Of a stretch of DNA of 64,000 nt, positions 7,118-45,748 are shown piece after piece. The notes under the pieces were generated by a model. The model ran no database searches. It saw nothing but the letters and a program-made list of their open reading frames with translations, and was not told the origin of the DNA. A program made the translations under genes and the position numbers. Position 1 is the stretch's first letter, and each line of letters starts with the position of its first letter. The stretch lies in IMG/VR virus record IMGVR_UViG_3300029880_000003, positions 66,978 to 130,977 of that record; one strand, 5' to 3'. The stretch is from a virus. Its lineage: Duplodnaviria; Heunggongvirae; Uroviricota; Caudoviricetes.

Positions 7118-8166
7118 TACAACAACGACTCGATTCTAATAATCAGGGAAGAGGAGTAGTTTCCTTCCATATCGGAAAGAACCAGCTTGAAATCCTCATC
7201 AACATAAGTGTCATCATCTATGCCAATAGATATTGCGTTGTCAGATTCCTCAATCTGCAATGCATCTTTAAAATCACAGATAATGTGCCACAAAGACTCA
7301 ACACCATCAATTACAGAACCATTTCTGTCAAAGAACTTTCCAGTGAACGTTTTCATATTGCCACCAGATTTAATAACATCAGAATCGTATGAGATAACAG
7401 ATTTAGAGACAAAGACCTTATCCGCATTGTCAGTCTTTATATCATCTTTCTCAACATAATCACATATGCCAAGATCTATTCTATCTGTCTCATTATTTGT
7501 AGCGCATTCCATAAGAGTAACCTTTACCAAACCCTTCTTACCATACGCATAACTTGTTGTATCGTTTTGCGTAACTATAAAAGACGTTGGATTCTCAAGA
7601 TCTCTATCCAAAAAGAATCTTTGAGGGGTTTTAAGCACAACGGTATTCTCATCATATGGCAACGTAATCATATGCTGAGAAGAACCAATTGTGAATTGCG
7701 CATTTGACATCTCACCAGAGTTGTACTGGGTTGAATTGATGTCATAACATGGATATTCTAATATATCGCCATGTTTGTTTTGCCATTTTAAAGTCCAGTT
7801 GCATAACGTGAACTTTCCTTGCCATTGAATGTCATCTATATTGAATACCTCTGTGCAAATGAAATACTCGTCTGCATCGGCATCGTAAACGATATCTCCG
7901 ACAAGAATAGGGTAATCGAACGGGGCATGGAACTTAACGGTAACGCCATTCGCAGCAGAATACTTCCTGTCATAAAACCTAAGAAGCAATTGTTTATCAT
8001 CATCATAAGTTTCATTGCCCAATTCCCAAAAATACACGTTATCTGTAAATGATGCATCATCAGCAAACACTTCGTTTAAAAGTTCTCTGCTATTTTTGAT
8101 GTTCTCGTTTTTCAACGAACCTCCACTGAGGCTCATTTTGCGCTTGAACTTGTCAAAACTTCTCAA
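7117..8166 (-). CDS. hypothetical virion protein
   Basis: 349-aa ORF overlapping neighbours by 1 nt (translational coupling). Confidence 0.4.
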   Translation of the reverse strand: MRSFDKFKRKMSLSGGSLKNENIKNSRELLNEVFADDASFTDNVYFWELGNETYDDDKQLLLRFYDRKYSAANGVTVKFHAPFDYPILVGDIVYDADADEYFICTEVFNIDDIQWQGKFTLCNWTLKWQNKHGDILEYPCYDINSTQYNSGEMSNAQFTIGSSQHMITLPYDENTVVLKTPQRFFLDRDLENPTSFIVTQNDTTSYAYGKKGLVKVTLMECATNNETDRIDLGICDYVEKDDIKTDNADKVFVSKSVISYDSDVIKSGGNMKTFTGKFFDRNGSVIDGVESLWHIICDFKDALQIEESDNAISIGIDDDTYVDEDFKLVLSDMEGNYSSSLIIRIESLL

Positions 8167-14257: not shown

Positions 14258-15823
14258 TCAGTACATTGTAGGTCTATGGTTTAATTTGCTCATCTTGGCT
14301 GCGTAATCTTGGATATTGAACCCTACGTTAGCCTTGTGAAGCAGCTCTCGTTCAAGTTGGCACTGAACCCAATAGTTGTAAGCAAGAGAACTGTAACGGT
14401 CTTTTCTCATACCAGAACGCTCTTTAATCTTGATGTTAGTGCCTTTAACTTCGTATTCGAGCTTGATAAGCTCATTTACGAGCAATGTTGTTTGAATATA
14501 TGGCATCTTATATGGCAATTGCTCTTGCTCTGTCATTTTTGAAAACCCTGAGATTTTCTTCTTTAAGATATCTTCTGCATCGGGTTCTTCTGGAACTAGC
14601 AAATTTATTCTGCCAGTTTTAAATGCATTTCTCAAAAGAATACAGATCTCGTTGTTGAATGTTGCACTGCCCTTGATAGACCATATCTCTTTAGGAGCGC
14701 CATCAACTTTACACCGATCCGCCATAATATCATCGTTGCAGCACGAAAGAGCTGGATATAGTTCACCAGTTTCAGGATCTACGATATCTTGTACCAATTG
14801 ATCATAAACTCCGATACCAGCACCCAATGTATCAACAACCAAATCGGTACATTTATAAGTTTTATATAATCTGCGAATAATAAGGGCTAATTCATTAGTA
14901 TTCAACCCTTCGTGATTTTCCATATATACTATATTCGCAATATAGTTATTATCATTTGTAGGAATCGCACTATTAATAATGATAGAACTGGCATCGTTCT
15001 TATGTTTTTTAGAAGCCATAAGAGCAATGTCTACAGATAAAATCCTTCTTTCGTTCGGTACAAGATCTGGGATTTTATATGTTTTATTTTGTATCGAAGA
15101 TGGCGGATATATTGCAGTTTTAAGTTTTCTTCTGGTTGATATGTCGCTAAGCTTAAAGAACGAACCATCAGTATCTCCGTAGAATAGGCTACCCATCTCC
15201 ATAGACCATTTAACCTCGTCAAAGTCTTCTTCAGACATTTCATCTTGAACTGCCTCCTTTTGGAGAAGTCCTTCTTTAATAGATATCTGATATGGAAGAC
15301 TACAAATAAAATATTTCTTATCTGGGTCTAGCAAGTTCGCAGTATATGCTTTTGCTTTTTCATAAGCCCAGTGGTCTACGTACCACGCCGAACTCATGTA
15401 GATCTCTTTATTTCGCTCAAGCATATGAGCGTACTTCGGATTATTGAGATAACCTGGCGTTCTTGGTGCCGTCAAGAATTTCTTTAAAACAGTGTCGATT
15501 GTATCTTTGTCTACCATACGGAATTCATCACAAACAAGAACGTTAGCTCTACCACCGCGCCCTGTGTCTGAGGCAGTGACAACTTTTATGTAAGATCCAT
15601 TTTTAAAATTAATCACGGCATTGTTAATACCTACAGTGTGAAATGATATTTCGCGTTTTAAATTCTCCGAACCCCAGCCATGAAGTTTCATAAAGTCATC
15701 TTCAATTTTCAATAAAACTTCATTTGCCTGTGTTCTAGTAGAAGATGCCACGCATATCTTTGTTCCTGGGAACAATATGCATCGGCAAACGCAAAACAAA
15801 GCAGTCAAAAAAGTCTTACCTTG
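14258..15823 (-). CDS. terL: terminase large subunit, exon 2
   Basis: reading frame opens directly after in-frame TAA and begins Q-G-K-T-F-L-T-A-L (Walker A lysine) with no ATG or RBS; Walker B VLVCDEF; nuclease domain follows. Confidence 0.7.
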   Translation of the reverse strand, partial: QGKTFLTALFCVCRCILFPGTKICVASSTRTQANEVLLKIEDDFMKLHGWGSENLKREISFHTVGINNAVINFKNGSYIKVVTASDTGRGGRANVLVCDEFRMVDKDTIDTVLKKFLTAPRTPGYLNNPKYAHMLERNKEIYMSSAWYVDHWAYEKAKAYTANLLDPDKKYFICSLPYQISIKEGLLQKEAVQDEMSEEDFDEVKWSMEMGSLFYGDTDGSFFKLSDISTRRKLKTAIYPPSSIQNKTYKIPDLVPNERRILSVDIALMASKKHKNDASSIIINSAIPTNDNNYIANIVYMENHEGLNTNELALIIRRLYKTYKCTDLVVDTLGAGIGVYDQLVQDIVDPETGELYPALSCCNDDIMADRCKVDGAPKEIWSIKGSATFNNEICILLRNAFKTGRINLLVPEEPDAEDILKKKISGFSKMTEQEQLPYKMPYIQTTLLVNELIKLEYEVKGTNIKIKERSGMRKDRYSSLAYNYWVQCQLERELLHKANVGFNIQDYAAKMSKLNHRPTMY

Positions 15824-17136
15824 CGGTTGTTATTAACCATAGGCTTTTTATCCTATGCTCTGGAAGTTTCCTTCATTTTCATCGGCATGTCTTTTCATGC
15901 CCAGCCTAGCACATATTTTCACCTACGACTCTACGTTTAGGTGGAGAAGACTCGTGGAGATGTTATATTTATTCAATCTCTGTGCGTTACGGTGCAAATT
16001 AGCCTTACGCAATCTAATTTGTTACCTCGGTATTAGCATATAATGTTACCTACTTAGCCTTCACCGATTTTCCTCTCTTTAATTACCTGCTCATTTCTGA
16101 GCAGGAAGACCATTTTTATACAATAAGTATTTTTGATATTTTCTATCTAATTTTTGAACATTGACATCGTAATAAATTAAATCCAATAGCTTTTCTGCAT
16201 TTGTACCATATAAATTCAATCTGTATTTTCTATCGTTCTCTTTATATACATTTGATTTTATTGAATATTCGGACAATTTATTTTTGATATACACAAGAAC
16301 ATCATCAAATGAAGACGTTATGTGGACGTAGAGATGATTGTTATTGCCTATATAAATACAACCATCTCCATCGATGTAGCCCCTTAGAAAATCTAAGAAG
16401 TAATCATCTAGCTCTGGGAAAACTTTATGATTTGTTTTATCTGGCACAACTCCATGAGAAATCAAGTCGGAGACTATATCTTTTGAATACACTCTAATTA
16501 AGGCAGTATCACTAATTGATTTTTCTGGATAGCCACAGATATATTTTTCTCTATGTCTGAATTTTATATCATGTGCATTTCCGAGTTCGCTGTTGAAATC
16601 CTCTAACAGTTTAACATCGTTCTCCTGCAATTCAATTGCCAACTCATACGTTCTTCTATCTGTATTGCATTGAATACTGCCGTCAGCAAATATAAAACCA
16701 AGCCAATACGCTTTGTTATTGGTATCTATGAACTTGAAATATCTTTTATCAAAATTCCTTAACTTAGTGTCGCAGTTATTGTTTATCCAACCTCTAACTT
16801 GCCTCTCGGTAAAGCCAAGTTCTTTTGCAATATCAGAGTATTTCATACTCGTATAATTGTTGGACATGTATTCAATATCGCTCTTACTAAAAATAGACCG
16901 ATTTGATTTCTTGTATCCATTGTTGTTCAGCCAACCATTTATTTGTTGTGGCGTATACCCACCTAAGTTTTCTCCGATTTCTTTATATGTCATATGCTCA
17001 TAATTTGATAGTATGTAATTTATCTGTTCGTCATTAAATAATTTTCTCATATCAACCTCTTTCGCTAAGGAAAGAGGTGGACGGTGGCTATCCGCCAAAC
17101 CTCAATTAAATACGTTTACTTATCGTAATGCTTTCG
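15824..17136 (-). mobile_element. group I intron with LAGLIDADG homing endonuclease ORF, inserted in terL
   Basis: exon 1 ends in U (GGU), intron ends in G (…AACAACCG); splicing joins …YIAARG to QGKTFLTAL, giving AARGQGKT ([AG]x4GK[ST]); about 1313 nt, AT-rich, stem-rich flanks. Confidence 0.7.
16091..17050 (-). CDS. LAGLIDADG homing endonuclease (double-motif) with N-terminal tandem HTH-like repeats
   Basis: motifs YWLGFIFADGSI and LRGYIDGDGCI; own AGAGGT RBS before ATG at 17050; N-terminal repeats …NY..M.Y.EI…LG….Q(I/V).GW(L/I)NNN twice. Confidence 0.85.
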   Translation of the reverse strand: MRKLFNDEQINYILSNYEHMTYKEIGENLGGYTPQQINGWLNNNGYKKSNRSIFSKSDIEYMSNNYTSMKYSDIAKELGFTERQVRGWINNNCDTKLRNFDKRYFKFIDTNNKAYWLGFIFADGSIQCNTDRRTYELAIELQENDVKLLEDFNSELGNAHDIKFRHREKYICGYPEKSISDTALIRVYSKDIVSDLISHGVVPDKTNHKVFPELDDYFLDFLRGYIDGDGCIYIGNNNHLYVHITSSFDDVLVYIKNKLSEYSIKSNVYKENDRKYRLNLYGTNAEKLLDLIYYDVNVQKLDRKYQKYLLYKNGLPAQK

Positions 17137-17346
17137 ACCTCGTGCTGCAATATACATAAAATAATAATTATGCATCATTGCATACAATAATATTTTCTGA
17201 AACAGCTTTAATTTCACATTTAGGTAATCAGCTACAAATCTCTGAGGATTGCTTCGATAGAAAGCAGTCCATGCAGCAACACCATCCATAATCCTAGCCG
17301 ACTTCTCATTGGCTATCTCTTTTTCGGATTTCTTTCTCTTAGCCAT
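17137..17346 (-). CDS. terL: terminase large subunit, exon 1
   Basis: [10 protein letters not shown]…FQKILLYAM…YIAARG then intron read-through RKHYDK-stop; 1-nt overlap ATGA with terS. Confidence 0.65.
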
Positions 17347-18392
17347 TATGACTTCTCCTCTTCATCGGAGATGTCACTTCCGAAGAGGGCATCGAAGATA
17401 GCTTCGTTATCCTCTTCTTCGGCATACTCTGGCTTCTCAGCAGTATACTTAGCCATGAACCTATCATACAAATTAGACAGACCATTCTTAAGACCCATCA
17501 TCTTAGCAAGATGCCCTCTAAAGAATGTATCCAGATAAAGTCCGATCTTGTCAACATCAGCCAATTCAGGATCGCAATCTGGAATCGGTCTTGTATTTTC
17601 CCATTTGTCGATGAGAGTGCCAAGCGTCTGAGAATCAGACATTGCCTCACCAGAGTTTTGCTTTGGCTGCAACTTCGCAGAATCAAGAAGCTTCTGGAAC
17701 TGTATCGTCAAATCCTTCGTATCACCCTTGGCTCTGTTGGCTCTCTGCAACTCTAACTGGGTAAAGCAAATCTGCTTGAACAGCTCTTCTTGAGCCTTCG
17801 TATTGCACTCATGTCTGGCAGTCCAATCAGTGTATTGGCTATACAGATAAAGATAATCTTCTTTTTCAAAGCCTTCACCGAATATCTCTATTGCCTTGGC
17901 AATCTTATCGTTCGCCTTGATATCGCTCTCTGTAACCAGCATAGTAGGGGAGGAGTCTTTGCCACCCTCGACAATCTTCTCATTGATGGTACCATCATAA
18001 CCCTTTTCCCTGTTTTGACTTAGATTGATTCGTTTAACATACAAACCAACCAACGGGGTGTCGATATATCTCCCAGACTTCTGATCGTTGACTGCCGCAT
18101 CAAGCACTTTGTCGGCATAATACCAATCCATTAGCATACATATTCGTTCCATTGCTTTCCGCTCTGGATTTGTGTAACCTAGCGATTTATACTTCGTAGC
18201 ATAATCGTAGCAAAGCTTGTCTAAGCATTCTTTGCAAATCGGTACTTTGCCAACAGCTCCGAACGCCTTGCTTTTAGTAGCATAAAAATTTTTCTTAAAA
18301 TCAAGCTTCTCTCCACAGCAGAGACAAAACGTCTTTGTTGGCGGATTCTTAAGAAACTCCTTTTCCTTTGGCGGTCTGCCTCTGGTAGCCAT
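17346..18392 (-). CDS. terS: terminase small subunit (putative)
   Basis: directly upstream of terL; likely start ATG at 18392 after GAGGTG RBS ([12 protein letters not shown]…); acidic C-terminus. Confidence 0.45.
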
Positions 18393-18457
18393 AGGCATCA
18401 CCTCTATAATTTCTTCAAACAAAAACAGCCCTCAACATTGAGAGCTACAATAAATCA

Positions 18458-20502: not shown

Positions 20503-21579
20503 TTATATAGTGGGGGTCTGTCCACGCAAGCGATTTCTGCGCTCTCTTTCCTTGATTCTCTTGTATTCTCGCCTATACTCATCGTGGCAACCTGGACATC
20601 TACAGGTCTTTGAGTCGTATATTCCTACCTCAAACCATAGTCCACAGTCAACACATTGAATATCTTTCGTTTGAGGTCTTAGATGGGATTCAAGGTTCTC
20701 AAGTATGATATCACCGTAACACAGCCACAGAGCCGTCTTGTTGTTGCTCTTCTTGATTCCGTATAGGAACTTTACCAATATATCGACAACATCATAGTTA
20801 TTGTAACCATAAAGAGAGAGGGCGTATCTTACGTCACTGAAAATCTTGCGATGCTTAGCCACTGTCCTAAGATAAGAATCAGAGCTGTTGTCCTTGTCTG
20901 AACACAACATGCTGTCAAGAGCAAGATAGTATTCCTTGTTAAACTCACAATACTTCACGATAACAGGATCGGTTTCCTCTTTGATGATTTTACCCTTGTC
21001 CGTAAAAGCAACATCGAACTCGATATCGGGATTCTTCATCATCAAGGTATAATCGATTTCATCAAGACCAAGCTTACGGCAGTTGATTCTTGGGTTTGGG
21101 ATGATTGCCTCAAGTTTATTTACGAAGCTTTCATTGGAGCCAAGCACCTGAGAATCCTTTTTGTCTTTTGCATACTTGAAAAAATGGGGGAGAGGGTCTT
21201 TTGTTAATTCATTGATTTTCTCGTCAATCTCATCTGGTCTTGTTGGCTTGTATAGAGTTTTCGCAAAATCTATAACGAAGTTGTTCTCCATACAAAGCAA
21301 TCTAATTACATCAATTGCATCACATTGCTCCTCGTGCGTTCCATCAACAAACACATCGCTGTTCCAAATCTTCGAAATGTTGTTGCTATAGATACCGATA
21401 TTCCCTCCAACAAACGCAGCATGAAGACCATCATAGATGGCGGCATTGTTGAGCGGACGCGGCTCAGCTTTCTTCATGTTGTAGTAGAGAGGGACGATAT
21501 CGAATTTCTCAAGATTTCTTTCTGCAACTTCAATAAGCGTCTTGTCTGCAACGACAAGCGACTTATCTCCATCAACCAA
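20503..21579 (-). CDS. hypothetical protein with C-terminal zinc ribbon and basic tail (possibly exon 2 of split gene)
   Basis: frame opens right after in-frame TAG (TAG CTA TAC AGG TTG…) with only TTG and no RBS; C-term CVDCGLWFEVGIYDSKTCRCPGCHDEY. Confidence 0.4.
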   Translation of the reverse strand: MVDGDKSLVVADKTLIEVAERNLEKFDIVPLYYNMKKAEPRPLNNAAIYDGLHAAFVGGNIGIYSNNISKIWNSDVFVDGTHEEQCDAIDVIRLLCMENNFVIDFAKTLYKPTRPDEIDEKINELTKDPLPHFFKYAKDKKDSQVLGSNESFVNKLEAIIPNPRINCRKLGLDEIDYTLMMKNPDIEFDVAFTDKGKIIKEETDPVIVKYCEFNKEYYLALDSMLCSDKDNSSDSYLRTVAKHRKIFSDVRYALSLYGYNNYDVVDILVKFLYGIKKSNNKTALWLCYGDIILENLESHLRPQTKDIQCVDCGLWFEVGIYDSKTCRCPGCHDEYRREYKRIKERERRNRLRGQTPTI

Positions 21580-21761
21580 CCTGTATAGCTACAGGTCAGA
21601 CTATATCATAACCATATCATTTCTGACTTAGGTTCTCGGCACTTCCAAATGAGGTGTCTCACCTCAAATGTACTCTACTCGGTTATTTATGTTTAACCAT
21701 ATCATTTTGACTTAGGTTAAACATTATCCTTTCGATAGTCGTTTGACATTTGTAAATTGAA

Positions 21762-22379
21762 TCATTCTTTTTCAAAACTCAAGCCCTTATATGTTTTATT
21801 GTTTCTGATGGATTTATCTATCTGACTACGTATTCCTTCCAACGAACAATTTTGCGCATAATGTTTCTGTATATATTCGCAACATTTTACAATATAGTCA
21901 AATTCTTTTATAAACTCGCCATCTAAAAACATTTTTATTTTTCTGCATCTACCATTTCTCAAGCCTTTACGCCCTTGTTTTTCTTTTGCGTATTCCTTGT
22001 TATTCGAGTATATCTCATGCAGCTTTCTATTCCCGTAATTTGGATTATTGCTTCCATGATAATCTGGCATGTTACATTTGCTATACCTTACATTATCAAT
22101 TCTTGATATCCATTCTAAATTATCAACATTTGAATTAGATCTATCGTAATCCTTATGATTCACCTCTGGTAAATTATCTGGGTTCGGTATATAAGCAAGT
22201 GCCACTAGTCTAGCAATTCTAACTGATCGCCATCCTTTATTCGGCACCTTTATAGAGCATATCGAATAACCATCTTTATTATATCTGGTATTCCTTAACT
22301 CACCATTCCAAATAACTTTCCCATCCCTGCTAACCTTTACGGGTGTTCCAAAATAATCTATTTCTTTGTATTCGTCCAT
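21762..22379 (-). CDS. HNH homing endonuclease (HNH_3 / AP2-type)
   Basis: VNHKDYDRSNSNVDNLEW motif; strong GAGGAGG RBS; AT-rich; flanked by about 180 and 160 nt of non-coding DNA. Confidence 0.75.
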   Translation of the reverse strand: MDEYKEIDYFGTPVKVSRDGKVIWNGELRNTRYNKDGYSICSIKVPNKGWRSVRIARLVALAYIPNPDNLPEVNHKDYDRSNSNVDNLEWISRIDNVRYSKCNMPDYHGSNNPNYGNRKLHEIYSNNKEYAKEKQGRKGLRNGRCRKIKMFLDGEFIKEFDYIVKCCEYIQKHYAQNCSLEGIRSQIDKSIRNNKTYKGLSFEKE

Positions 22380-22536
22380 TCTGCCTCCTCAGCAGAATGA
22401 TTCAATTTACACTTTGCACAGGATTCCAAAATGGTTCCCTGTTAGCATGGCTCCTAGCTGTCATTTCCTACAGCTCCTATATGTAAGCCATACACCCCAG
22501 ATGTCTGGGTTCACCGAGTTTTATATCCCTGTATTT

Positions 22537-24387
22537 CTACAGGGTTCGACATTTATGGTCATCGAATTGAAGAATCTTGCTTATCAAATCCTTACAGCTT
22601 GTATAAACCGCATCGGTAACGAACCATTCCCGAAGTTTCTTCTGTCGTTCCTTATACTCTCTGCAAGCGATATTCTTTCTGATTGCATGTTCCATGAAGA
22701 GGTGCGGCGATCTCAGGCAATCAAGCTTGTCATCCTTCCTGAACAACCAACAGAAGACCTCTCCATCGTCAAGCAACCCATTTGGATTCTCCTCTCCTAG
22801 AAACCAATGCTCGCACGCAGCATAGAAATCTGGGAGCAGGAAAGTGTATTTACCTCGCACATTCAGCTTGCCAGACTTGCATTTCTTGATGATGCTGTCC
22901 TTGATGCTTCTCAAATGAGATTTCGCATACTCGTCATTCAGCAAATCTGGATACAAATCGATTGATTCTTGAAAAGCAGTCTTGTTCGTGTTATACGGTG
23001 TTACACCAAACGCATCCTTGATATTCTTGACAGAAGAGCAGAGGTTCTTAAGCTTGCCAACGGACTGTCCAGATATCTCAGCAATCTCATCGTCTGTGAT
23101 ATCAGTCAAACTCTGCAACATCTGATAGTTGATTGTCGCGTCCTTTATCCTGTCTTCCTCAAGGTTCGTGTACCCAGCAGAGCAATTGTACTTCTTGTAG
23201 TTCTCCTTGTACTCATCCCATGAGTCATAGTATTTGTACATCTTGAACTGACTTTTGCAGAAGACAACCTGTATATCCTCTGCGATGATATCATGCTCTT
23301 TGCCGTAGATATCCTTCAGAACAGGAGAGCATCCGTGTTCCTCTATGAACTTGACGAAATCGAACACACCGAGCAATCCCTTCACCCAGGGGAGCCGAAC
23401 CATCCTGTTCTTACCCATGCATGGAAGCATCATACCAGCACCATCTGTGTGGGTAATCGGCACATGCTTGTTTTGACGCTTGATGGAGTAGTCTGTCTCA
23501 TCAACCAAATCGTATGTACCTAAAACATCAGTCTCGAAATCGTCAACCACAATCGTCTTGTCGATATCGAACTCTTCCCAAACATCTGTTGCGGAGTTAG
23601 CCAAAGCCATGTAAGCCAGATGCTTGTTCGGGTTGTTGCCGCCCTTTGCGTTGATCTTGTCGATTGTCAATCCGCACATCAACGACCTCTCGTACTTCTT
23701 CCACACGGACTCTCTCACGAACACGCACTTCTTTGTTCTGATCTGTCCAGCAGAAGAGGTGAAGTACACGTACTTCTCTCCCTCGAACATGAACCCATGG
23801 TAAATCAAGTCCTTGATGACATCGAAGTAGTATACCTGAATAACCATGAAGTCCTTGCAAAGCTCATCTTGCTCGGCTCCGATTGTCCTTGTGAAGTAGG
23901 AGTCAAAAACAGAGATGATGTTCTTATCGGCGATAGCCTCATCACGCAGCTCTCTGATATGATGTGTACCATTTGACCTTATGTTAGCCTCAACCTTGTT
24001 AGCCAAGAGAAGAAGAAGGTTGTCTTTTGCTTCCTTTGCCTTTTTGTTCTTCATGCGAACAATGTCCTTCTGCTTGGAGTACCTATGCCCAAGCTCGGTC
24101 ATCATCTCTGCATCCTCGCCGTATCCAGAGAAGTCGAACTCGTTCTTCGCGACAGACTTCAAATCATCGTCTGAGACACCGTATTCGCGCAGCTTCTTCT
24201 TGATATCCCCAAGCCCCATGACGGTTCGCTTGACTCTGCCGTTCGACCCCTTGAAGGTGTAGCCGTTAACAAGCTGGTTTCTCTCGGATCTCAACCTATG
24301 GTTCTGCATGTGCAGGTTCTTTTCCTCGTTGCTGTAGAAATCAGCAGTGTCAAAGCAATAAATCTGAATTTGCTTGTCTAATGCCAT
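22537..24387 (-). CDS. large hypothetical protein (possible nucleic-acid enzyme/replication; function unknown)
   Basis: 616-aa ORF; possible AEP-like DxD (IVVDDFETD) but no confident family assignment. Confidence 0.45.
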   Translation of the reverse strand: MALDKQIQIYCFDTADFYSNEEKNLHMQNHRLRSERNQLVNGYTFKGSNGRVKRTVMGLGDIKKKLREYGVSDDDLKSVAKNEFDFSGYGEDAEMMTELGHRYSKQKDIVRMKNKKAKEAKDNLLLLLANKVEANIRSNGTHHIRELRDEAIADKNIISVFDSYFTRTIGAEQDELCKDFMVIQVYYFDVIKDLIYHGFMFEGEKYVYFTSSAGQIRTKKCVFVRESVWKKYERSLMCGLTIDKINAKGGNNPNKHLAYMALANSATDVWEEFDIDKTIVVDDFETDVLGTYDLVDETDYSIKRQNKHVPITHTDGAGMMLPCMGKNRMVRLPWVKGLLGVFDFVKFIEEHGCSPVLKDIYGKEHDIIAEDIQVVFCKSQFKMYKYYDSWDEYKENYKKYNCSAGYTNLEEDRIKDATINYQMLQSLTDITDDEIAEISGQSVGKLKNLCSSVKNIKDAFGVTPYNTNKTAFQESIDLYPDLLNDEYAKSHLRSIKDSIIKKCKSGKLNVRGKYTFLLPDFYAACEHWFLGEENPNGLLDDGEVFCWLFRKDDKLDCLRSPHLFMEHAIRKNIACREYKERQKKLREWFVTDAVYTSCKDLISKILQFDDHKCRTL

Positions 24388-24540
24388 ACAATACCTTCCT
24401 TTCTTTTGCTATTCTTCGTTTTTTCATCGTTTTCTTCGCATCCATATTCGTTTTTCAAAGTACATAGGTTTCTTCGTGTATAACCTTATCAGTTAATAAT
24501 AATATAAAAAATAACAGTTCTCAAATTAAAAATAAATTAT

Positions 24541-24726
24541 TTACAATCGCCAATCATCGAACAGGTCATCGCCGTACTCCTTGTAGAACCATCCAGCGTA
24601 GTCGTAGAAGTTATCGCCTTCCTCAACATCGTCTACGCATGATATATACTCTCGATCGTCCGATGGTGGATAGAAATCCTTCTCAGTTAAAACATCGTTG
24701 ACCATCTTTCTCTTGCTGTTCGCCAT
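24541..24726 (-). CDS. small acidic hypothetical protein
   Basis: 61-aa ORF. Confidence 0.3.
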   Translation of the reverse strand: MANSKRKMVNDVLTEKDFYPPSDDREYISCVDDVEEGDNFYDYAGWFYKEYGDDLFDDWRL

Positions 24727-24747
24727 TCAATCACTTCCTCAGCGGCT

Positions 24748-25653
24748 CTAACTTGCCGCACTCGCTTTTGTCTTATTTGCTTTTTTGACCCTGCTTTGCA
24801 CAATGAGCCTTTTCTTAGCAGATATCTCCAAACCATAATATGCGCTTCCAGATGCAAGAAGCATATCGCCGTCCCTCTTATACCAATTGCAGAACAATGT
24901 GCAATCCGTTCGCCATTCACCATCAAATCTGAGCCTTGGCATATGCTCGAAGTATATGATCTTCAAATCCTTAAGAAGATGAATGTACTTCGAGGCAACG
25001 TATTCGGTAAGCCCAACATCGATTGCAATGTCTTTGAAATATGCATTGCATGACTCAGGATACTTATCCCTTCTTTTGGTGATGTCGGAATCGCTTGCCT
25101 CATCATCTCCGATGCCGATTTCATCATAATGAAGCTCGTTCCTTCGCCTCGGTATGCTCAACCTGAGATATGCCAGTATCAGAAGCATCGCGTCCTTGTT
25201 GGGCGGTCTGCCTTTCTTGTCTTCTTCCGTATAAGACAGAACCTTGATTATCTCGTCAACATACAGGATGCCGAATCTTTCCTCGGAGCATTTATCGTTC
25301 AGAAAGTCGATGTTGAAGCTTGCATCGGTCTGCTCTGTGTTCTTCGGATCGCCATCAACATCAATGTAGCCAAGCCCCTCAAGATAGGACACCGTGGACG
25401 CTAGGGCATCGTTGCCGTATCCCTTCTTCCTGCTAGGCTTCCGTCCCATCCACTTCGACAACTCGTTCAATGTGAACGTCATGTCTCCGTATATTCCCCT
25501 CATCGATGCGAAGAACGAGTAAACAGAGATTCGTTTGTCATCATCTCCGCAATCAAGAATCAAACTCTCTGGCACCCTGATAAATGCCCTCTCTTTGCTG
25601 TCAAGCTTTCTTTCACCAACATATTCGACATCATTGCCCTTAAAACGCCTCAA
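24748..25653 (-). CDS. hypothetical protein, candidate replication initiator/regulator adjacent to iteron region
   Basis: first gene of leftward operon next to repeat-rich ORF-free region. Confidence 0.3.
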   Translation of the reverse strand: MRRFKGNDVEYVGERKLDSKERAFIRVPESLILDCGDDDKRISVYSFFASMRGIYGDMTFTLNELSKWMGRKPSRKKGYGNDALASTVSYLEGLGYIDVDGDPKNTEQTDASFNIDFLNDKCSEERFGILYVDEIIKVLSYTEEDKKGRPPNKDAMLLILAYLRLSIPRRRNELHYDEIGIGDDEASDSDITKRRDKYPESCNAYFKDIAIDVGLTEYVASKYIHLLKDLKIIYFEHMPRLRFDGEWRTDCTLFCNWYKRDGDMLLASGSAYYGLEISAKKRLIVQSRVKKANKTKASAAS

Positions 25654-26090
25654 CTAAATCACCTGCCTAACGACCTGCATATGACATCATCGAATACAAA
25701 TAAGATGATATCATATTGATCTTATATGTAAAGAGCATCTTCACCTCAACACATAACCCACACATATTCAAATGCAACCAATGCATTGAAAGCATAATAG
25801 AACGACCAATCGATAGCGTCAATGGCTGATTTTAATTTTGACACGCAAAACGTACCCAAAATTTTTAAAATGCGAATTATGGTTACAACATGCGTGTCAA
25901 AACTGCGGCGGTAATTATATATATAATAATATATAGTATATAAGGCGCAAGCGCCCCGACCGCGTGTACTCAGGAGGATACGTATCTAGACCGAGAGCGT
26001 ATCTTGAGTGTAGCTGTATTTTGGGGTAGACGTTATATCTAGGATAAGTTTTATCCTGGGGTAGGTTTTATTTAGAGGTATATATTAACT

Positions 26091-26430
26091 TCGATTGCTA
26101 ACGCAATCTCAGATATTAACTTCGTAAGCTTATGCTCGCTAACGCTCACACGCTTACGTTAGCTTCGTATTCTAACGAATACTCAGCGCTCAGGATATTA
26201 TCTAGCTTCGCTAACGCTCAGCGTTTCCAGCTTCATATCTTCTTAGGTTAGATCGTTAAGCATCAGTTGCCAATCATCGCGTTCTGTTGCGATTACATTA
26301 GTTTTCACATTAGATTACATTACATTACATTAGATTAGATTACATTAGATTAGATTAGATTAGTTTTCACATTAGTTTCTATCAGTCAATTTCGATTGCT
26401 AATGCAATCATTTTTCGATTGCTAACGCTC
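26091..26430. promoter_or_regulatory. repeated operator-like palindrome TTCGATTGCTAACGCAATC (3 copies) and CGCTAACGCTCA repeats
   Basis: copies at about 26091, 26391, 26413. Confidence 0.45.
26308..26372. repeat. hexamer tandem repeat (ATTAGA/ATTACA)n flanked by direct repeat TAGTTTTCACATTAG
   Basis: cattacattacattagattagattacattagattagattagattag. Confidence 0.8.
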
Positions 26431-27344
26431 AACTACTTCAAAGAATAGATACACAATGTCTTATTACATAGATATAACGTCTTATTGATCGCACCTATTA
26501 TCTACATACGGTATAGCTCACAATATTCTCACCAGTATGGATACACATCAAACCCAATAGTTTTCTTTATCATCAGATATTGTCGAACTGGTATATGACC
26601 TGGGATTATATGTCTTTTAAAGCATACTGGCTCCTTGCTTGACACGGGCTTCCATACTGCATACGTTTCATTTATTTCATCAGCTTATGTTGTCACGATA
26701 TTGTTATTATGTAGATAGTTCATCTCTATATTGTTGTTATGTAGTTGATATGTAGTCAATTAAATATAGTCTCTTTTCGGCTTGCTGCCTGGGTTTACGA
26801 GGTTTTCCTTGCTACCTGGGCTTTTTTGTTTTCGTTGGATTTATTCGTAGGTCATGTAGTAACTGTGTAGCTGTCATGTAGTCGTGTTTTCAGACAAGTT
26901 TTTAGGTGGGCGAGGGGTTGCTTGGATGGGTTTGAGCGGTGGTCTATGGGTTGAATCTTCGGTAGTGATTTAGGCGATATAGATGTTTTGGGTTAGGAGT
27001 GTTTAGGTGCGATTGATGGTTGGGTTGGTTTGGTGAACGGTTTGGATACGTGATCTGGATGTCTTGGGTATGGCTTGATTTTTAGGTTCGTTATACGTGT
27101 GTGAAACACGTGGTGGCGTTTGCCAAAATCAAATAGCGTTCAAAAGTTTTAAACAGGGGTAGGGTGCTACCTTATGCAGTTTTGTAACATTGAATTCTAA
27201 TTCCTATAGGTTTACTAGGATATAAATTTTTCGAACATGTGTTCGTGTTTTTTTGGGACTCCTGGAACAAAAAAAATTTGGGGGTGTTACAAAAATTTTT
27301 TGTAATTGTGTTTCATTATAAGGGGCGGCGCTGGTTAATAAAGA

Positions 27345-27431
27345 ACTACTTATAAAATATAATTATAAAATATAACTATTTTACTTATAAAATATAACTA
27401 TAAAATATAATTATAAAATATAACTATCTAC
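27345..27431. repeat. AT-rich tandem repeat (TATAAAATATAAYTA)n, candidate DNA unwinding element
   Basis: ttataaaatataattataaaatataactattttacttataaaatataactataaaatataattataaaatataactatc. Confidence 0.75.
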
Positions 27432-27440
27432 CTAAAACCG

Positions 27441-27565
27441 ATACCCTAAACTCATAGCCTAACGCTATCATTCCACCAACCCATAGCCTACGCCTATCAA
27501 TTCCCTATTCCATAGTCCTACACTATCAATTCTCAAACCTATAGCCTCACGCTATCAATTAACCA
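27441..27565. repeat. four iteron-like direct repeats ATAGCCTACGCCTATCAATTC with period about 29 bp
   Basis: atagcctaacgctatcattcc / atagcctacgcctatcaattcc / atagtcctacactatcaattct / atagcctcacgctatcaattaa. Confidence 0.7.
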
Positions 27566-27844
27566 AACTAAACTATTCGCCCACGTTATCGAACTTATAA
27601 CAAACTCAAATACCACGCTATAAGCCGCTCTAAGCCGTTCTAAGCCCCTATTTCCGATTCTAGGCAATAAGCACCCTACCTAACCCGTTATCGACCGTTA
27701 CACGCCATAGTACCAGGTCAAACCCTATATTTAGGTTGTCTAACTATCCATTCATAGTCTATAGCTATCAATACCATACTGAATAACCTATTGATATATC
27801 CTTATAGCTATGGTATTCGCGCGTACTATAACGTATGGCACCTA

Positions 27845-27950
27845 TTAGTTAACCATAGCTAACTTACTGTTATAGCCTGAACCTATAACCAACTATAAGC
27901 GTAGCCTATAGCTAGGATCCATAGTTAACCATGGTTAACTTATACAATGC
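27845..27950. repeat. two copies of 21-bp palindromic element TAGTTAACCATGGTTAACTTA
   Basis: tagttaaccatagctaactta and tagttaaccatggttaactta. Confidence 0.6.
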
Positions 27951-28502
27951 GAACGCGCCAAACCATAGGGCGAACGCCTGAAACCTCGTTTAACGTGTCT
28001 AGAATCCATCCTAAGTCCATATAACGCTAAACGTGAACGCTTATAGCTTAAAGCACTAAACGCGCCTGAAACAGGCTTAGAACAGTCTTATATGCGATTG
28101 TGAAGAAACTGTGAACGAAAACAGTTTGGTACTAGACAACTAAAAACGAATGCGTAATATATAAAGCGTCCCAAGGGGGACGGGGCGAGCGCCGAACGAT
28201 TGGAGGCTTTAGGCGCGAAGTCAATCGAATACATGCGAATACTACGCTTATATAGTGGTAGTCTGGTTTATTGCAAATCGCAATGAATCAGGAGGGACAA
28301 CTATATAGGACGTATAGGCAAAAACTATAAAACTAGTTGGCGGTATCATTTGCCGTAAAACGTGGAGTAGTTAGTAACCGAAACCGCTCGCAACTTGACA
28401 ATCGAATAAATGCGCACCTACCCGCGCGGTAGGGCATGGGATTCATTCTCTTACAACGTGGGCTATCTGCTAGGGCGTATAACCTAGTGGTTAGGATTTA
28501 TC

Positions 28503-28814
28503 ATGTTTGAAACTGTAACTTTCCACTTGAACGCAATGGATGTACGCGATGCTTGCATTAAGAATGATTGGTATAACGCGGGTTCATGCAAGGACTATAG
28601 CGTTTTGCTTGATTATGTTGATGAACATTTGAGCGAGTTTGACACAGCGTATATGCCTATCCTTATGGGCAAGCTTGAATATGTTGCTGAAAACATACGG
28701 AAACATACCGATTGGGACGAAAACGCCTATGATTGTACGGTTAGCGAATTTGAGGCGAACATTGCGTCTGTTTTGTTGGACGACTATGCACAATGGACGG
28801 TCGAATTGTTGTAG
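28503..28814 (+). CDS. hypothetical early protein
   Basis: 103-aa ORF. Confidence 0.45.
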   Translation: MFETVTFHLNAMDVRDACIKNDWYNAGSCKDYSVLLDYVDEHLSEFDTAYMPILMGKLEYVAENIRKHTDWDENAYDCTVSEFEANIASVLLDDYAQWTVELL

Positions 28815-28878
28815 TGGAATAGGACGATAAGCGCAAGGGGCAACCCTTGCCACGTCCTAGCAGGTAGCCATAAAACGA

Positions 28879-29238
28879 TTGATAGGGGATAAAATGAAAC
28901 TCCGTAGTATGAGCGCCGAAGTAGAACACGTTTCTAACATTACGCTTGAGTTGGCAAACGGCGAAACTGTAGAGCTTGAGAACGCCTATGTTCTCTGGTC
29001 ATACGCTAGCCGTGTTGCCGTGTACTGCAAAATGCGCGTTTACCTGTTGCCGCGATACGATTATTCCGTGACAACATGGAAGCACGTACATGCATTTATT
29101 CAGGACTATTGCCCTGGTGTGCGTGACTATGACGCAAAAACCATGCGTTACCATGCAAAACATGAGCTTAATAACGGTGAATACATGTTTGCAAACGGTA
29201 TTGTCAACACGTACAGCGGCAAAGTGAGTGCGTACTAA
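28879..29238 (+). CDS. hypothetical early protein
   Basis: 119-aa ORF. Confidence 0.45.
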   Translation: MIGDKMKLRSMSAEVEHVSNITLELANGETVELENAYVLWSYASRVAVYCKMRVYLLPRYDYSVTTWKHVHAFIQDYCPGVRDYDAKTMRYHAKHELNNGEYMFANGIVNTYSGKVSAY

Positions 29239-29380
29239 TGGAACAGTTTGTGGAACTATTCGGTATCATGCTTTTTGTTGGTATAGAATGCTTTCTACTA
29301 GGAACAGCATACGAACGCAAGAAGTATGAGAACAAACGCGATAGGCGCTAAACAAAGCGGATAGCCTACATTGTAGGGGA

Positions 29381-29770
29381 ATGGATCTATGGATACTACG
29401 CAACTACTGCGTAGTTACGATAGCCTACATTGCAGGGCGCAAGATTGGACGGTGTACTATGATTGAATACAACGCCTATGAGTTCTGCGAGGGTTCCGAA
29501 GATTGGCAAGGTTTCGAAATGTCATATGAGGTTCATGTCAACGGCAAGGATCGCGGTAGGGCTGGTTTCGGCGGCTTGTTCATGTACAATGTAACGCCCG
29601 ATGTTGTGCGCGTATATGCGTATGACGGTGACGAGGAACGTACTCTGATGAATTGGAACGAGAAAACACAAGGCAAAAGCATGGATTATGCTAATGATGA
29701 CTTGTCGGGTTTCTCTGATGATTTTGTTCAAGAATTGCTATATGCTTGCTTTGAAAGCGATATTTGGTAA
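29381..29770 (+). CDS. hypothetical acidic protein (start uncertain, possibly 29456)
   Basis: ORF. Confidence 0.4.
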   Translation: MDLWILRNYCVVTIAYIAGRKIGRCTMIEYNAYEFCEGSEDWQGFEMSYEVHVNGKDRGRAGFGGLFMYNVTPDVVRVYAYDGDEERTLMNWNEKTQGKSMDYANDDLSGFSDDFVQELLYACFESDIW

Positions 29771-29854
29771 AACTACTATGTTGCGCCTTGCAACGTGGGC
29801 TATCTGTATAATCGGCTATCTGCCAGGGTGTAAACCTAGTAGAAAGGAATAGCA

Positions 29855-30121
29855 ATGGTCGAGTTTGTTTTTTATGACGGCGAGTATCCCAATTTGTGCA
29901 GTGGAACCCTCATGCTCAGCATTGATGGGGAAACCGTTGAATTTCCCAAATACTGCATGCGTTCAGGCGGCTCCGTTTGGTTCGATGACGAGTGGAACGA
30001 GCATGTAGAGTGTGGGGAATGGTCTGTAGAGGTTCCCGAAAAGTATGCACATCTTCAAAAAGAAATCGAAGATTGTGTGAACTCTAATGTGCCGTGCGGC
30101 TGCTGTGGAGGTTGCATCTAA
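29855..30121 (+). CDS. Cys-rich small protein ending CGCCGGCI (paralog of 63144..63482)
   Basis: YPNLCSGTLML… …CGCCGGCI-stop. Confidence 0.5.
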   Translation: MVEFVFYDGEYPNLCSGTLMLSIDGETVEFPKYCMRSGGSVWFDDEWNEHVECGEWSVEVPEKYAHLQKEIEDCVNSNVPCGCCGGCI

Positions 30122-30303: not shown

Positions 30304-30440
30304 CCATAAGAAGGACGATAAGCGCAAGGATCAACCCTTGCCACGTCCTAGCAGGTAGCCGAAACATTAGCTATTCTAGGGCGGTATAGAAATTTTCATA
30401 CGGAAAATCTACTCGCAAGAGTTGCGAGAATCTTAGGAAG

Positions 30441-42213: not shown

Positions 42214-42337
42214 ATAATCGAGGGAGATAATATTCTCCCTCTTTTTTTGTTATATTAAACTTAGTCAAACTACTTGCCAGCTACATAAACGAGTGTTACA
42301 ATTATTGTATAGAAAAGGACAGAAGCTAGAAAGGGTG

Positions 42338-43138
42338 TTCAACATGGCTGATTATGCTCCGCAAATTAACTATCAGTACAAGTCCAACGTCATCTCGTTC
42401 GAGGATCTTAAGAGCAAGAAGGATGAAGAGAACACTAAGGCAGCAGATGAGCCTAAACGTATCAGTTATACCGCTGGCAAGTCCACTGAGGTATATGCTT
42501 TCCGTACCGAAGAAGAGATCAAGGCTATGATCGATGTGTACGATAAGCATATTGATGAAGCTGCCAATGAAGATCAAAGACGTGTAGCATGTCGCAACAA
42601 GATGATGTTCGTTGTCGGTTTGAATATTGGTATTCGTGTAAGTGATTTGGCATCGTTGAAGTATTCTTTCTTCTTCGATAAGAAACCCAATGGAGAATAT
42701 GCATTCAAGAAGTTCTATACTTTGCAGCCTAAGAAGCAACGCAAGAGCGGTAAGTTCGTTAAGCTGTTCTTCAATCAGACTGTTCGTGTTGCTATTGAAA
42801 ACTACATTGCAGAGTATCCGTTTGAAAGTCTTGATGAATATCTATTCACTTCTAGAGAAGGAGACAACAAGCCATTGGAAACACGTTCTATTTGGCGCAT
42901 TATCAAGCGTACCGCGAAGGAAGCTGGTATTAATAAGAACATTGGATCGCACAGCCTTCGCAAGACATGGGCTTATCGAGTTTGGAGCAGCGCCGAAGAT
43001 AAGAATAAAGCTCTAGTTATGTTGATGCGCTGCTTTAATCATTCCTCTGCTGTTGTTACGATGCGCTACATTGGAATCATGGATGATGAAATCGAAAAAA
43101 TGTATAATAGCGTTGAGCTAGGTCTTGATTATTTATAG
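42338..43138 (+). CDS. tyrosine recombinase / phage integrase family (short, XerC/D-like)
   Basis: catalytic region HSLRKTWA…LMRCFNHSSAVVTMRYI (R, H-x-x-R, Y). Confidence 0.65.
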   Translation, partial: FNMADYAPQINYQYKSNVISFEDLKSKKDEENTKAADEPKRISYTAGKSTEVYAFRTEEEIKAMIDVYDKHIDEAANEDQRRVACRNKMMFVVGLNIGIRVSDLASLKYSFFFDKKPNGEYAFKKFYTLQPKKQRKSGKFVKLFFNQTVRVAIENYIAEYPFESLDEYLFTSREGDNKPLETRSIWRIIKRTAKEAGINKNIGSHSLRKTWAYRVWSSAEDKNKALVMLMRCFNHSSAVVTMRYIGIMDDEIEKMYNSVELGLDYL

Positions 43139-43270
43139 AAGAAGATGAGCATTATAAGCAAAGTAATTAAATAAAGGTGACGGCTGTTTTTAGCAGCCGT
43201 TGCCATTTGTATTAATGTTATATGTTGTGTAATATTGACTTAGAATACTACAAGAAAGGGGCGCTCATGT

Positions 43271-44209
43271 GTGAACAATGATTTTGAGGGGTTTATAAAA
43301 ACATTCGACTCTCCAAACACAGTAAGAGTAGTTAAGTCATTACAAGCAATAGGAGATTATGATTACTCTAATTGTACGCCGTTTGATATTGAGAATATAA
43401 TCCTTAACCTAAAACCAAATAGTCCAAAAGCTATAACAACAATCATATATATCATGTCTTTATACGCTAAGTATCTTGGAAATAAAGACATGTTGTATAT
43501 GATTGAGGACATTGATAGGAATGCTCTTTGGTTATTGGCAAAACCAAATGCAGCAAAGAAGTTCATATCCAATAAAGATTTCGAGAACGTCTATCATGAG
43601 ATAGGGGTGCATGAGGAACATAACTCATTCTATATACAAACATTGTTCAGATGCTTGTATGAAGGAATCTATTGTGATGATATGAGCGTCATAAAGAATC
43701 TGAGGGCAAGCGATGTAAATGATAGCGTTGTCACTCTTAGAGATGATAATGGTAATGAGTATAATATAACTGTGTCAGATAGGCTTGCTGGTGATCTTGT
43801 GAAGCTAGGCGATGTCGATACATGGAGCAGGAACAACCGCTATGGCGTATGCAACATTGCAATAACTGGATTATATAAGGATAGTTGCTTTAAAGTTGAG
43901 AATAGAAAAGGAAGTTCGGAATACAGCTATAGGTTTTCTTATTATCGCATATTGAGGAACATAGCAAAGAATTATGTTGGATACAGTTTATTACCGTTGC
44001 AACTCTATGTGAGCGGCATAATGTATAGAATAGGGAAGATGTTGAAGCAGCATGATATTGCGATACAAGACGCTTTCTCAGACAATAATAGGGATAAGAT
44101 TGTTAATACAATAATAACCAATGAACTTACCAGGTGCATGTGCGATACGCCAGTAAGAAACTTTAGGGAAATGGTTAAAGGACATTTAGAAGTATTTGAT
44201 ACTTTCTGA
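43271..44209 (+). CDS. hypothetical protein, AT-rich, possibly degenerate integrase-like/SAM-like domain
   Basis: 312-aa ORF; weak resemblance only. Confidence 0.3.
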   Translation: MNNDFEGFIKTFDSPNTVRVVKSLQAIGDYDYSNCTPFDIENIILNLKPNSPKAITTIIYIMSLYAKYLGNKDMLYMIEDIDRNALWLLAKPNAAKKFISNKDFENVYHEIGVHEEHNSFYIQTLFRCLYEGIYCDDMSVIKNLRASDVNDSVVTLRDDNGNEYNITVSDRLAGDLVKLGDVDTWSRNNRYGVCNIAITGLYKDSCFKVENRKGSSEYSYRFSYYRILRNIAKNYVGYSLLPLQLYVSGIMYRIGKMLKQHDIAIQDAFSDNNRDKIVNTIITNELTRCMCDTPVRNFREMVKGHLEVFDTF

Positions 44210-45596: not shown

Positions 45597-45672
45597 GCGC
45601 CAGTAACTCAGGGGACAGAGTTCCGATCTTCTAAATCGGGGGTCGAGTGTTCAAATCACTCCTGGCGCTCCA
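45597..45672 (+). tRNA. tRNA-Arg (anticodon UCU)
   Basis: hand-folded cloverleaf: acceptor GCGCCAG/CTGGCGC, D-stem ACTC/GAGT, anticodon stem CCGAT/ATCGG loop CTTCTAA, T-arm GAGTG-TTCAAAT-CACTC, encoded CCA. Confidence 0.8.
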
Positions 45673-45674
45673 AT

Positions 45675-45748
45675 GCCTGATTAGTTTAATGGTAAAACAA
45701 ATCACTTGTAATGGTTAGTCGAGCGTCCGATTCGTTCATCAGGCACCA
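45675..45748 (+). tRNA. tRNA-Thr (anticodon UGU), T-loop slightly non-canonical
   Basis: acceptor GCCTGAT/ATCAGGC, D-stem GTTT/AAAC, anticodon stem AATCA/TGGTT loop CTTGTAA, encoded CCA. Confidence 0.55.

Follow-up and report, generated by a model that had tools for sequence, protein, structure and literature searches.

The window analysed here is a stretch of 64,000 nucleotides (positions 66,978 to 130,977 of the IMG/VR record IMGVR_UViG_3300029880_000003) from an uncultured human-gut phage of the SPβ/YonO RNA polymerase group, and we report that the 2.85-kb gene-free stretch at its positions 25654-28502, hereafter the gap, is a real, conserved, multi-module inter-arm control region of this YonO-encoding, SPβ-like phage and not simply a replication origin. 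That the gap holds the packaging start and the boundary of a terminal repeat near 27345 is in our judgement an evenly balanced proposition. A packaging region is suggested here because the gap sits where the SPβ packaging start and the terminal repeat of the Psychrobacillus phage Perkons lie, and because the window shares the skew layout of both phages; the virion end would lie at ~27344-27347 since the skew flips and related assemblies break there.

Genome ends in SPβ-like phages and the architecture of the gap

In SPβ-like phages the genome opens between yonR and yonP, as restriction mapping and read pile-ups have established; for SPβ itself the opening point goes back to Fink & Zahler 1982, as cited by Kohm et al. 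(bioRxiv 10.1101/2021.11.22.469490). A precise block of ~250 bp lies between the two genes and packaging runs toward yonO. For Perkons (MT325768) a 264-bp short direct terminal repeat has been mapped using PhageTerm (PMC13245101), and joining the ends of this genome places the repeat in a ~2.15-kb stretch upstream of yonO that is free of open reading frames (ORFs). We located the SPβ block, 251 bp long, at 7876-8126 of the SPβ record (L001) and the Perkons repeat at 1-264 of its record (L083). The two are homologous end to end (global alignment z = 4.4), both starting with GCTWWGGGT and ending with GGGAAT..CG.AAG. Because the SPβ block is homologous to a mapped repeat, SPβ-like phages, as judged from these alignments, probably have a short direct terminal repeat, beyond a headful pac site.

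On the left arm of the window (minus strand) the genes follow the order seen in SPβ: yonO, which codes for a YonO-type single-chain RNA polymerase and is split by an HNH gene, then the genes for an HU-like protein, the exonuclease YonJ, YonG, terminase and portal. The window YonO fragment shows 50-54% identity to its counterparts in SPβ, phi3T, Perkons and Clostridium phage D-1873. Numerous small early genes are found on the right arm (plus strand), together with two tRNAs and two recombinase-like genes, and the gene map bears out the preliminary description, in which the leftward and rightward arms diverge from the gap. The gap is also as empty of genes as had been described, the longest ORF wholly inside it being 51 amino acids (aa), and public gene callers place no gene in the gap of five related contigs. 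In SPβ the opening point lies correspondingly, with the early arm diverging on one side and the yonP/yonO late arm on the other. The features discussed below are:

24748-25653, minus strand: first gene of the yonO arm; its 301-aa, initiator-like product has two winged-helix domains
25654-25942, no strand assigned: promoter/operator module of the initiator-like gene, with an inverted repeat and an A+T run
25943-26290, plus strand: conserved hairpin block, short hairpins with a constant TAAC centre; GCTAAYGC boxes at 26097, 26138 and 26210
26291-26378, no strand assigned: microsatellite (ATTAG/ATTAC)n with 26-nt direct repeats, of strain-variable length that differs across all six strains compared
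26379-26759, no strand assigned: conserved unique spacer; TTCGATTGCTAAYGC sites at 26391 and 26414, GCTAAYGC boxes four and five at 26398 and 26421
26760-27100, plus strand: C-poor, G+T-rich tract on the yonO side; GC skew up to +0.72, G+T up to 0.78
26928-26972, plus strand: 45-nt island with CTATGGGT (26944-26951), invariant in six of six strains; the related contig L035 diverges on both sides of it
27101-27346, no strand assigned: compositionally balanced block, at the position taken by the 251-bp block in SPβ and the 264-bp repeat in Perkons
27344-27347, no strand assigned: predicted virion DNA end and packaging start, from the skew flip, the junction on contig L091 and contig ends; DNA leads leftward into the yonO arm
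27347-27427, plus strand: A+T-rich 13-mer tandem array TTATAAAATATAA; positions 27351-27450 have 13% G+C
27351-27700, plus strand: G-poor, C+A-rich tract on the early-arm side; 1-14 G per 100 nt, GC skew -0.85 to -0.36
27453-27568, plus strand: dyad-symmetric iterons ATAGY-N5-RCTATCAAT, four at 29-bp spacing; a fifth copy at 27753-27772
27846-27866 (imperfect) and 27922-27942, no strand assigned: pair of 21-nt palindromes AGTTAACCATGGTTAACT, from a repeat search
28140-28502, plus strand: strain-variable promoter and leader sequence for the rightward early arm; conserved GTGGGCTATCTGCTAGG box at 28458-28474

The switch from G+T-rich to C+A-rich sequence that had been noted in the gap is real and very sharp. 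Specifically, GC skew on the plus strand ranges from +0.55 to +0.72 within 26850-27100 and from -0.85 to -0.5 within 27351-27650, the sign changing at 27346/27347. The same layout, a C-poor tract followed by a balanced block and a G-poor tract, is present in the window, Perkons, SPβ and several IMG/VR clades. SPβ and the window agree in the order of these tracts and in the implied direction of packaging, toward yonO, and the C-poor tract of SPβ abuts its 251-bp block. In Perkons a C-poor tract of ~500 bp stops exactly at the repeat and is followed by A+T-rich direct repeats and then by a G-poor patch. L035 has a divergent sequence in part of the G+T-rich tract, which is nonetheless still rich in G+T; this suggests that selection in this tract acts on composition and not on sequence. 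A Chi array as the meaning of the G-rich tracts was rejected, the Bacillus subtilis Chi (AGCGG) being absent from the SPβ tract.

Of 14 related contigs set against the window, five crossed the gap, two ended in the microsatellite (L095 at 26369 and L096 at 26358) and seven broke within 27284-27473. Contig ends lie at 27346 (L093), 27361 (L163), 27331 (L164), 27284 (L094) and 27397 (L092), and at 27408 and ~27470 for a contig from the Joint Genome Institute (JGI); on L091 the phage homology stops at 27346 and is followed by host DNA of 61% GC with rplU, rpmA and obg. Every broken contig continues leftward into the yonO arm, which matches the packaging direction of SPβ. Physical genome termini, the finding that the preliminary description had set against its own proposal of an origin, are located at this place in the experimentally studied relatives SPβ and Perkons, and the assembly breakpoints suggest the same for the window phage.

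From these data we infer the following. The region ~26.9-27.6 kb would be the DNA-packaging region, in which terminase would cut concatemers at ~27344-27347 and package leftward into the yonO/structural arm. A short terminal repeat would lie to the left, its right edge at ~27344-27347 and its left edge either at ~27100 (giving ~245 bp) or at the CTATGGGT island at 26944 (~400 bp). The cut would be framed by the C-poor tract on one side and by the 13-mer array, the dyad iterons and the G-poor tract on the other, and the packaging or DNA-end machinery would bind the repeat arrays. At its left edge the gap would hold a separate 290-bp cassette of the initiator-like gene, where the promoter of this gene lies along with a 12-nt inverted repeat and an A+T run, and the right 360 bp would be a changeable promoter region of the early arm.

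Six near-identical strains were used to follow conservation across the gap. About 40 nt over the junction (27320-27362) are conserved in all of them, with variation at 27236-27318 in L088. The invariant island at 26928-26972 is the candidate left boundary of the ~400-bp version of the repeat. Its 8-mer CTATGGGT equals the start of the SPβ block, GCTATGGGT, a similarity that by itself is not statistically significant, and iteron 2 contains the reverse complement, CAACCCATAG. Conservation within the gap is highest at 26087-26290 and not in the iteron module: the 81-nt run 26087-26167 is invariant, and the block as a whole has 92-100% invariant positions per 50 nt. Rightward from 26454 the corresponding values are 84-98%, with invariant runs at 26592-26628 and 26657-26719. 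The number of iteron copies in the six strains is 4, 4, 4, 3, 1 and 1, the length of the 13-mer array is likewise strain-variable (L088 has a scaffold gap inside the array), and the early leader region 28140-28502 is replaced in L088, L089 and L035. Beyond the close strains, searches using blastn-short and local alignment with shuffles found no conservation of the gap sequence.

Several points weigh against a virion end at this site. The window terminus is placed by inference and not from reads, whereas the ends of Perkons are read-mapped. Breaks near ~27.35 kb are also expected from a tandem array with 13% G+C, through loss of coverage and repeats; one broken contig (JGI) is merely circular, with a 66-bp end overlap; and the L091 junction is seen on one contig alone. 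The candidate blocks of the window have no similarity to the SPβ and Perkons blocks (z -0.5 to 1.2; for the balanced block at 27101-27346, z = -0.4 and -0.5, respectively). The best plus-strand match to the right boundary of the Perkons repeat falls at 27330-27365, and ACTACTTATAAAAT, just right of 27346/27347, resembles the flanks after the Perkons and c-st repeats (ACTTC...), but boundary-motif scores are not above those of shuffled sequences. In the YonO-encoding phage c-st the 404-bp terminal repeat is not beside yonO, so the position of the repeat is not universal. Finally, iterons, an A+T array and an initiator-like gene also look like an origin. Separately, terminal repeats read directly from contig ends were considered and rejected, as the overlaps of 46 bp (L010) and 66 bp (the JGI contig) are those of circular assemblies.

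The likeness to the two cultured phages has further limits. The SPβ gap is ~950 bp compared with 2.85 kb in the window, and SPβ has no initiator-like gene, microsatellite, 13-mer array or 29-bp iterons; its YonO promoter lies farther downstream, upstream of yonK and outside the equivalent region. Perkons resembles the window in having its repeat in an ORF-free stretch upstream of yonO, and differs from it in having no initiator-like gene beside the region. Terminase arrays such as the λ cosB R sites, SPP1 pacL/pacR and the P1 pac hexamers combine short protein-binding repeats with bendable A+T-rich DNA by the cut, and the window arrays, as putative binding sites, would resemble them in architecture only.

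Replication, transcription and integration as possible alternative functions

The preliminary description proposed a theta- or plasmid-type origin at the iterons and the adjoining A+T-rich element, bound by the product of the adjacent gene. This is partly supported: the predicted fold of the adjacent protein and the kept position of its gene speak for it, while the sign of the skew and the way in which the iterons vary speak against it. The 301-aa protein has no match in Pfam, PHROG or NCBIfam. Members of its family match the winged helix-turn-helix families HTH_24, HTH_36 and MarR, and neither the protein nor its family members match Rep_3 or another initiator family in Pfam. An AlphaFold model based on a 60-sequence alignment reached a predicted local distance difference test score (pLDDT) of 94.9 (a model from a 6-sequence alignment, pLDDT 42.7, was discarded). 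The only two-domain matches of this model in the PDB are π, RepE and RctB, all weak (Foldseek E ~2e-3, template modelling score 0.37-0.5), and fold matches in BFVD include "Replication protein O" and "Replication initiator protein". Nearly all gut-clade loci have a homolog in this position. We therefore describe the protein, on the strength of its modelled fold, as replication-initiator-like.

If it is an initiator, the left edge of the gap is more likely to be its acting site than the 29-bp iterons, because the iterons fail to co-vary with the protein and only the adjacent 290 bp swap with the gene. The module at 25654-25942 contains the 12-nt inverted repeat TGCGTGTCAAAA (25836-25847 and 25891-25902), a 37-nt run of almost pure A+T (25906-25942) and leftward promoter-like sites at 25822-25794 and 25732-25705, and it is on sequence grounds a candidate cognate-site and unwinding module. 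In L035 the initiator-like gene and the ~290-bp segment upstream of it have been exchanged as a unit: the protein is 43-45% identical to that of the window, the left segment carries its own repeats and A+T run, homology returns at ~25916-25943 and the rest of the gap is ~90% identical. A replication cassette at the left edge, in which the protein would act at 25836-25942 as on a compact origin or an autoregulated operator, with packaging and transcription left to the remainder of the gap, agrees with this exchange, since gene and exactly that segment move together. It also agrees with a sister clade in which ~three copies of a 23-nt repeat lie 250-400 bp from the homologous gene. The module has one inverted pair only and no iteron series, however, and a simple autoregulated promoter fits the same facts; we regard a replication cassette here as possible, if on the unlikely side. 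An origin inside the initiator-like gene itself was dismissed, as there are no repeat arrays there.

The repeats that gave rise to the proposal of an iteron origin are largely as described. Four iterons are indeed present in tandem at 27453-27568; their spacing is 29 bp, and each contains an internal dyad, ATAGY-N5-RCTAT. The iteron pattern has 6 matches against 0.23 expected, all within the gap region, and the A+T-rich 13-mer array was confirmed, with five or six copies at 27347-27427 where 0.43 are expected. An origin at these sites, with the 301-aa protein binding the iterons and melting the 13-mer array, would be compatible with a packaging site nearby. It has a canonical layout in its favour, i.e. 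four 29-bp-period dyad iterons adjoining an 81-bp array in 13% G+C. Tandem iterons with internal dyads beside an A+T array are found in the systems of R6K π, F RepE, pPS10 RepA and ori λ/O, and the predicted two-winged-helix fold of the adjacent gene product appears to be shared with R6K π, F RepE and pPS10 RepA and resembles RctB and phage O-type initiators; the spacing differs, being 29 bp in the window compared with ~22 bp in iteron origins. Moreover, the initiator-like gene is kept beside the gap across the clade, other clades have different arrays at the same place (e.g. GTTGAAAAC, ~eight times) and no other initiator candidate is present among the window genes scanned. The origin of SPβ is undefined, and the closest cultured relatives by YonO are the Clostridium botulinum phages D-1873 and c-st. 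These two phages are kept as plasmid prophages.

What argues against the iterons as the sites of this protein is their inheritance. The same iteron occurs in the window and in L035, whose proteins are only 43-45% identical; conversely, in the sister clade, the proteins of L011 and L014 are 99% identical and the arrays at the far end of their gaps differ; and near-identical strains have anything from 1 to 4 iteron copies. The iterons are 1.8 kb from the gene, which swaps with its own 290-bp upstream module only, and SPβ and Perkons share the architecture without the 301-aa protein. The local flip at 27346/27347 is opposite in sign to an origin-type flip, as seen in the genome-wide flip (left arm negative, right arm positive); the minimum of the cumulative GC skew does fall at 25-28 kb, but the coding strand changes there too, and the two effects are not separable. 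No DnaA box was found in the gap region. On balance we think an origin at the iterons unlikely. DnaA-box-like TTWTNCACA sequences are rare in the window in general, with one in 64 kb (at 58800) against 8.1 ± 2.6 expected.

The gap had also been called a regulatory hub, which is plausible because the promoters for both arms must lie in it; promoter-like matches as such are at chance (15 compared with 11.8 ± 3.9 expected). An alternative to a packaging region is that the gap is mainly transcribed, with G-poor leaders or non-coding RNAs (ncRNAs) running outward from ~27.1-27.4 kb, e.g. for Rho loading or antitermination, and with a structured RNA at 26.09-26.29 kb. Both tracts are G-poor when read outward, terminator-like hairpins are mildly enriched (7 compared with 2.6 ± 1.6), and no part of the gap is better conserved than the hairpin block, whose stems differ between units around the constant TAAC centre. 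Set against this are the chance level of promoter-like sites, weak RNA-fold z-scores for the hairpin block (-1.3 and -2.1) and a covariance scan of 24000-30000 on both strands using Rfam 15, which gave no match at E up to 1. The strains are too similar for covariation, and transcription leaves the breakpoints unexplained. We consider a gap of this kind improbable.

Finally, 27346/27347 might be an attP crossover through which the phage integrates in the host gene obg. L091 passes from rplU-rpmA-obg straight into phage DNA at 27346, and several assemblies break at or near this position, as when integrated and free forms mix. This explanation is largely refuted and in our view very improbable: the phage and intact obg have no core in common (0-1 bp shared), the Obg GTPase is cut off at the junction directly after its G5 motif, and the resulting chimeric ORF is a singleton, found on a single contig among 15 billion proteins. 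Obg is an essential protein. Nor does the host fit, its DNA being of Gemmiger/Subdoligranulum type with 61% GC compared with ~40% for the phage, whose relatives are prophages mainly of Lachnospiraceae and other Clostridia; the tyrosine-recombinase-like genes are 15 kb off, and the equivalent SPβ region is internal to the prophage. Inspection of positions 1-1855 of L091 (130.7 kb, from ERZ27237347) shows the ~40%-GC phage sequence joined in the middle of obg to Gemmiger/Subdoligranulum-like DNA without shared sequence. The junction is probably a chimeric assembly at a pre-existing end of phage DNA, and contigs of this type are a warning against their use in host prediction.

Oppositely skewed tracts flanking known and predicted terminal repeats

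SPβ-like phages are large and temperate and have an unusual single-chain RNA polymerase, and both their replication origin and their packaging signal are undefined. We regard the oppositely skewed tracts around the terminal repeat in SPβ, Perkons and the gut clades as the most interesting lead from the present data. To our knowledge this layout is undescribed, no literature search having been made for it. It offers a way to predict, from sequence only, the genome ends of uncultured relatives. As a general proposal, and a quite doubtful one, SPβ-like phages might have a conserved end architecture in which the tracts frame the terminal repeat as a strand-specific device, with the gut clade adding a plasmid-type initiator cassette and arrays of variable copy number that would tie packaging to replication control at a single locus. 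If so, each 3'-ending strand would have a G-rich stretch a few hundred bases in, and the tracts might serve end processing, end protection or the resolution of concatemers. What the gut clade adds to the conserved layout is the initiator-like gene and the strain-variable repeat arrays, and if packaging and replication do adjoin here the locus would be a handle for engineering or typing abundant gut phages.

Further repeats, neighbouring genes and relatives

Among the smaller elements of the gap, the microsatellite is present at 26291-26363 with ~14 units; its unit is the pentanucleotide ATTAG/ATTAC and not, as first described, a hexamer. The direct repeats reported to flank it are there as 26-nt copies at 26291-26316 and 26353-26378. 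The three GATTGC operator-like sites likewise need a correction: three copies of TTCGATTGCTAAYGC exist (26090, 26391 and 26414, with 0.74 expected in the whole window), and two of them are full palindromes, GATTGC-TAAC/TAAT-GCAATC, the third being a half-site. Five of the eight matches to GCTAAYGC in the window fall within 26097-26428, all on the plus strand. Dispersed operators resembling SPBRE were considered and rejected, as the iteron and GATTGC motifs are confined to the gap region of the window. The 21-nt palindrome was found in both of its reported copies, the one starting at 27846 being imperfect and the other starting at 27922.

In the early leader region, terminator-like hairpins lie at 28167-28182 and 28412-28428. 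The GTGGGCTATCTGCTAGG box has three matches in the window (28458-28474, 29811-29827 and 30347-30363) against 0.07 expected; it is followed by a short CTAGG...CCTAG hairpin and sits just upstream of the ribosome-binding sites of several early genes. It also precedes early genes of L035 (L035 160-220 and 1545-1600), and it may be an early promoter or an element of translational control. Other clades have arrays of their own at the early-arm end of the gap, all strongly strand-skewed: L005 has a 30-nt unit in ~9 copies, ~2725-3140 bp upstream of its initiator-like gene, L016 a 22-nt palindromic unit repeated four times (1734-1832) and L017 a 21-nt unit repeated 3.3 times (1366-1435).

Contigs that are 100% identical to the window over the stretches compared come from human-gut metagenomes and are ~130.5-131 kb long, and related prophages are mainly found in Lachnospiraceae and other Clostridia. 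The phage is present in samples ERR912111 (contig ERZ918349 k127_76432, 100% identical), ERR11569709, ERR11565261, SRR8146980 and ERR13332333. The species genomes of GTDB contain no close relative (best YonO identity 66%), a DNA similarity search against 50,697 phage records gave no match, and neither did two pattern scans of JGI metagenomes.

With respect to the neighbouring genes, yonO (20503-24387, minus strand) is split in the window by an HNH gene at 21762-22379, while L090, L091 and L096 have an uninterrupted gene (966 aa). The inserts in other strains sit elsewhere, leaving fragments of 712+255 aa (with an I-HmuI-like gene), 720+255 aa and 607+238+324 aa, and in Bacillus phage BUCT083 a GIY-YIG gene splits yonO. 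Among the window, L084 and L088-L096, yonO is a hot spot of homing-endonuclease insertion. The terminase gene may also be interrupted, because the terminase-like ORF matches large-terminase profiles only in parts; within 14258-18422 (minus strand) an endonuclease-like gene (16091-17098) separates the YonG-like gene from this ORF. In the early arm, two adjoining tyrosine-recombinase-like genes of 281 and 312 aa (42293-44209, plus strand) could encode integrases or, as the SPβ repressors YopR/MrpR share the recombinase fold, repressors of that kind. The two tRNA genes of this arm, for tRNA-Arg(TCT) and tRNA-Thr(TGT), are adjacent at 45597-45748 (plus strand).

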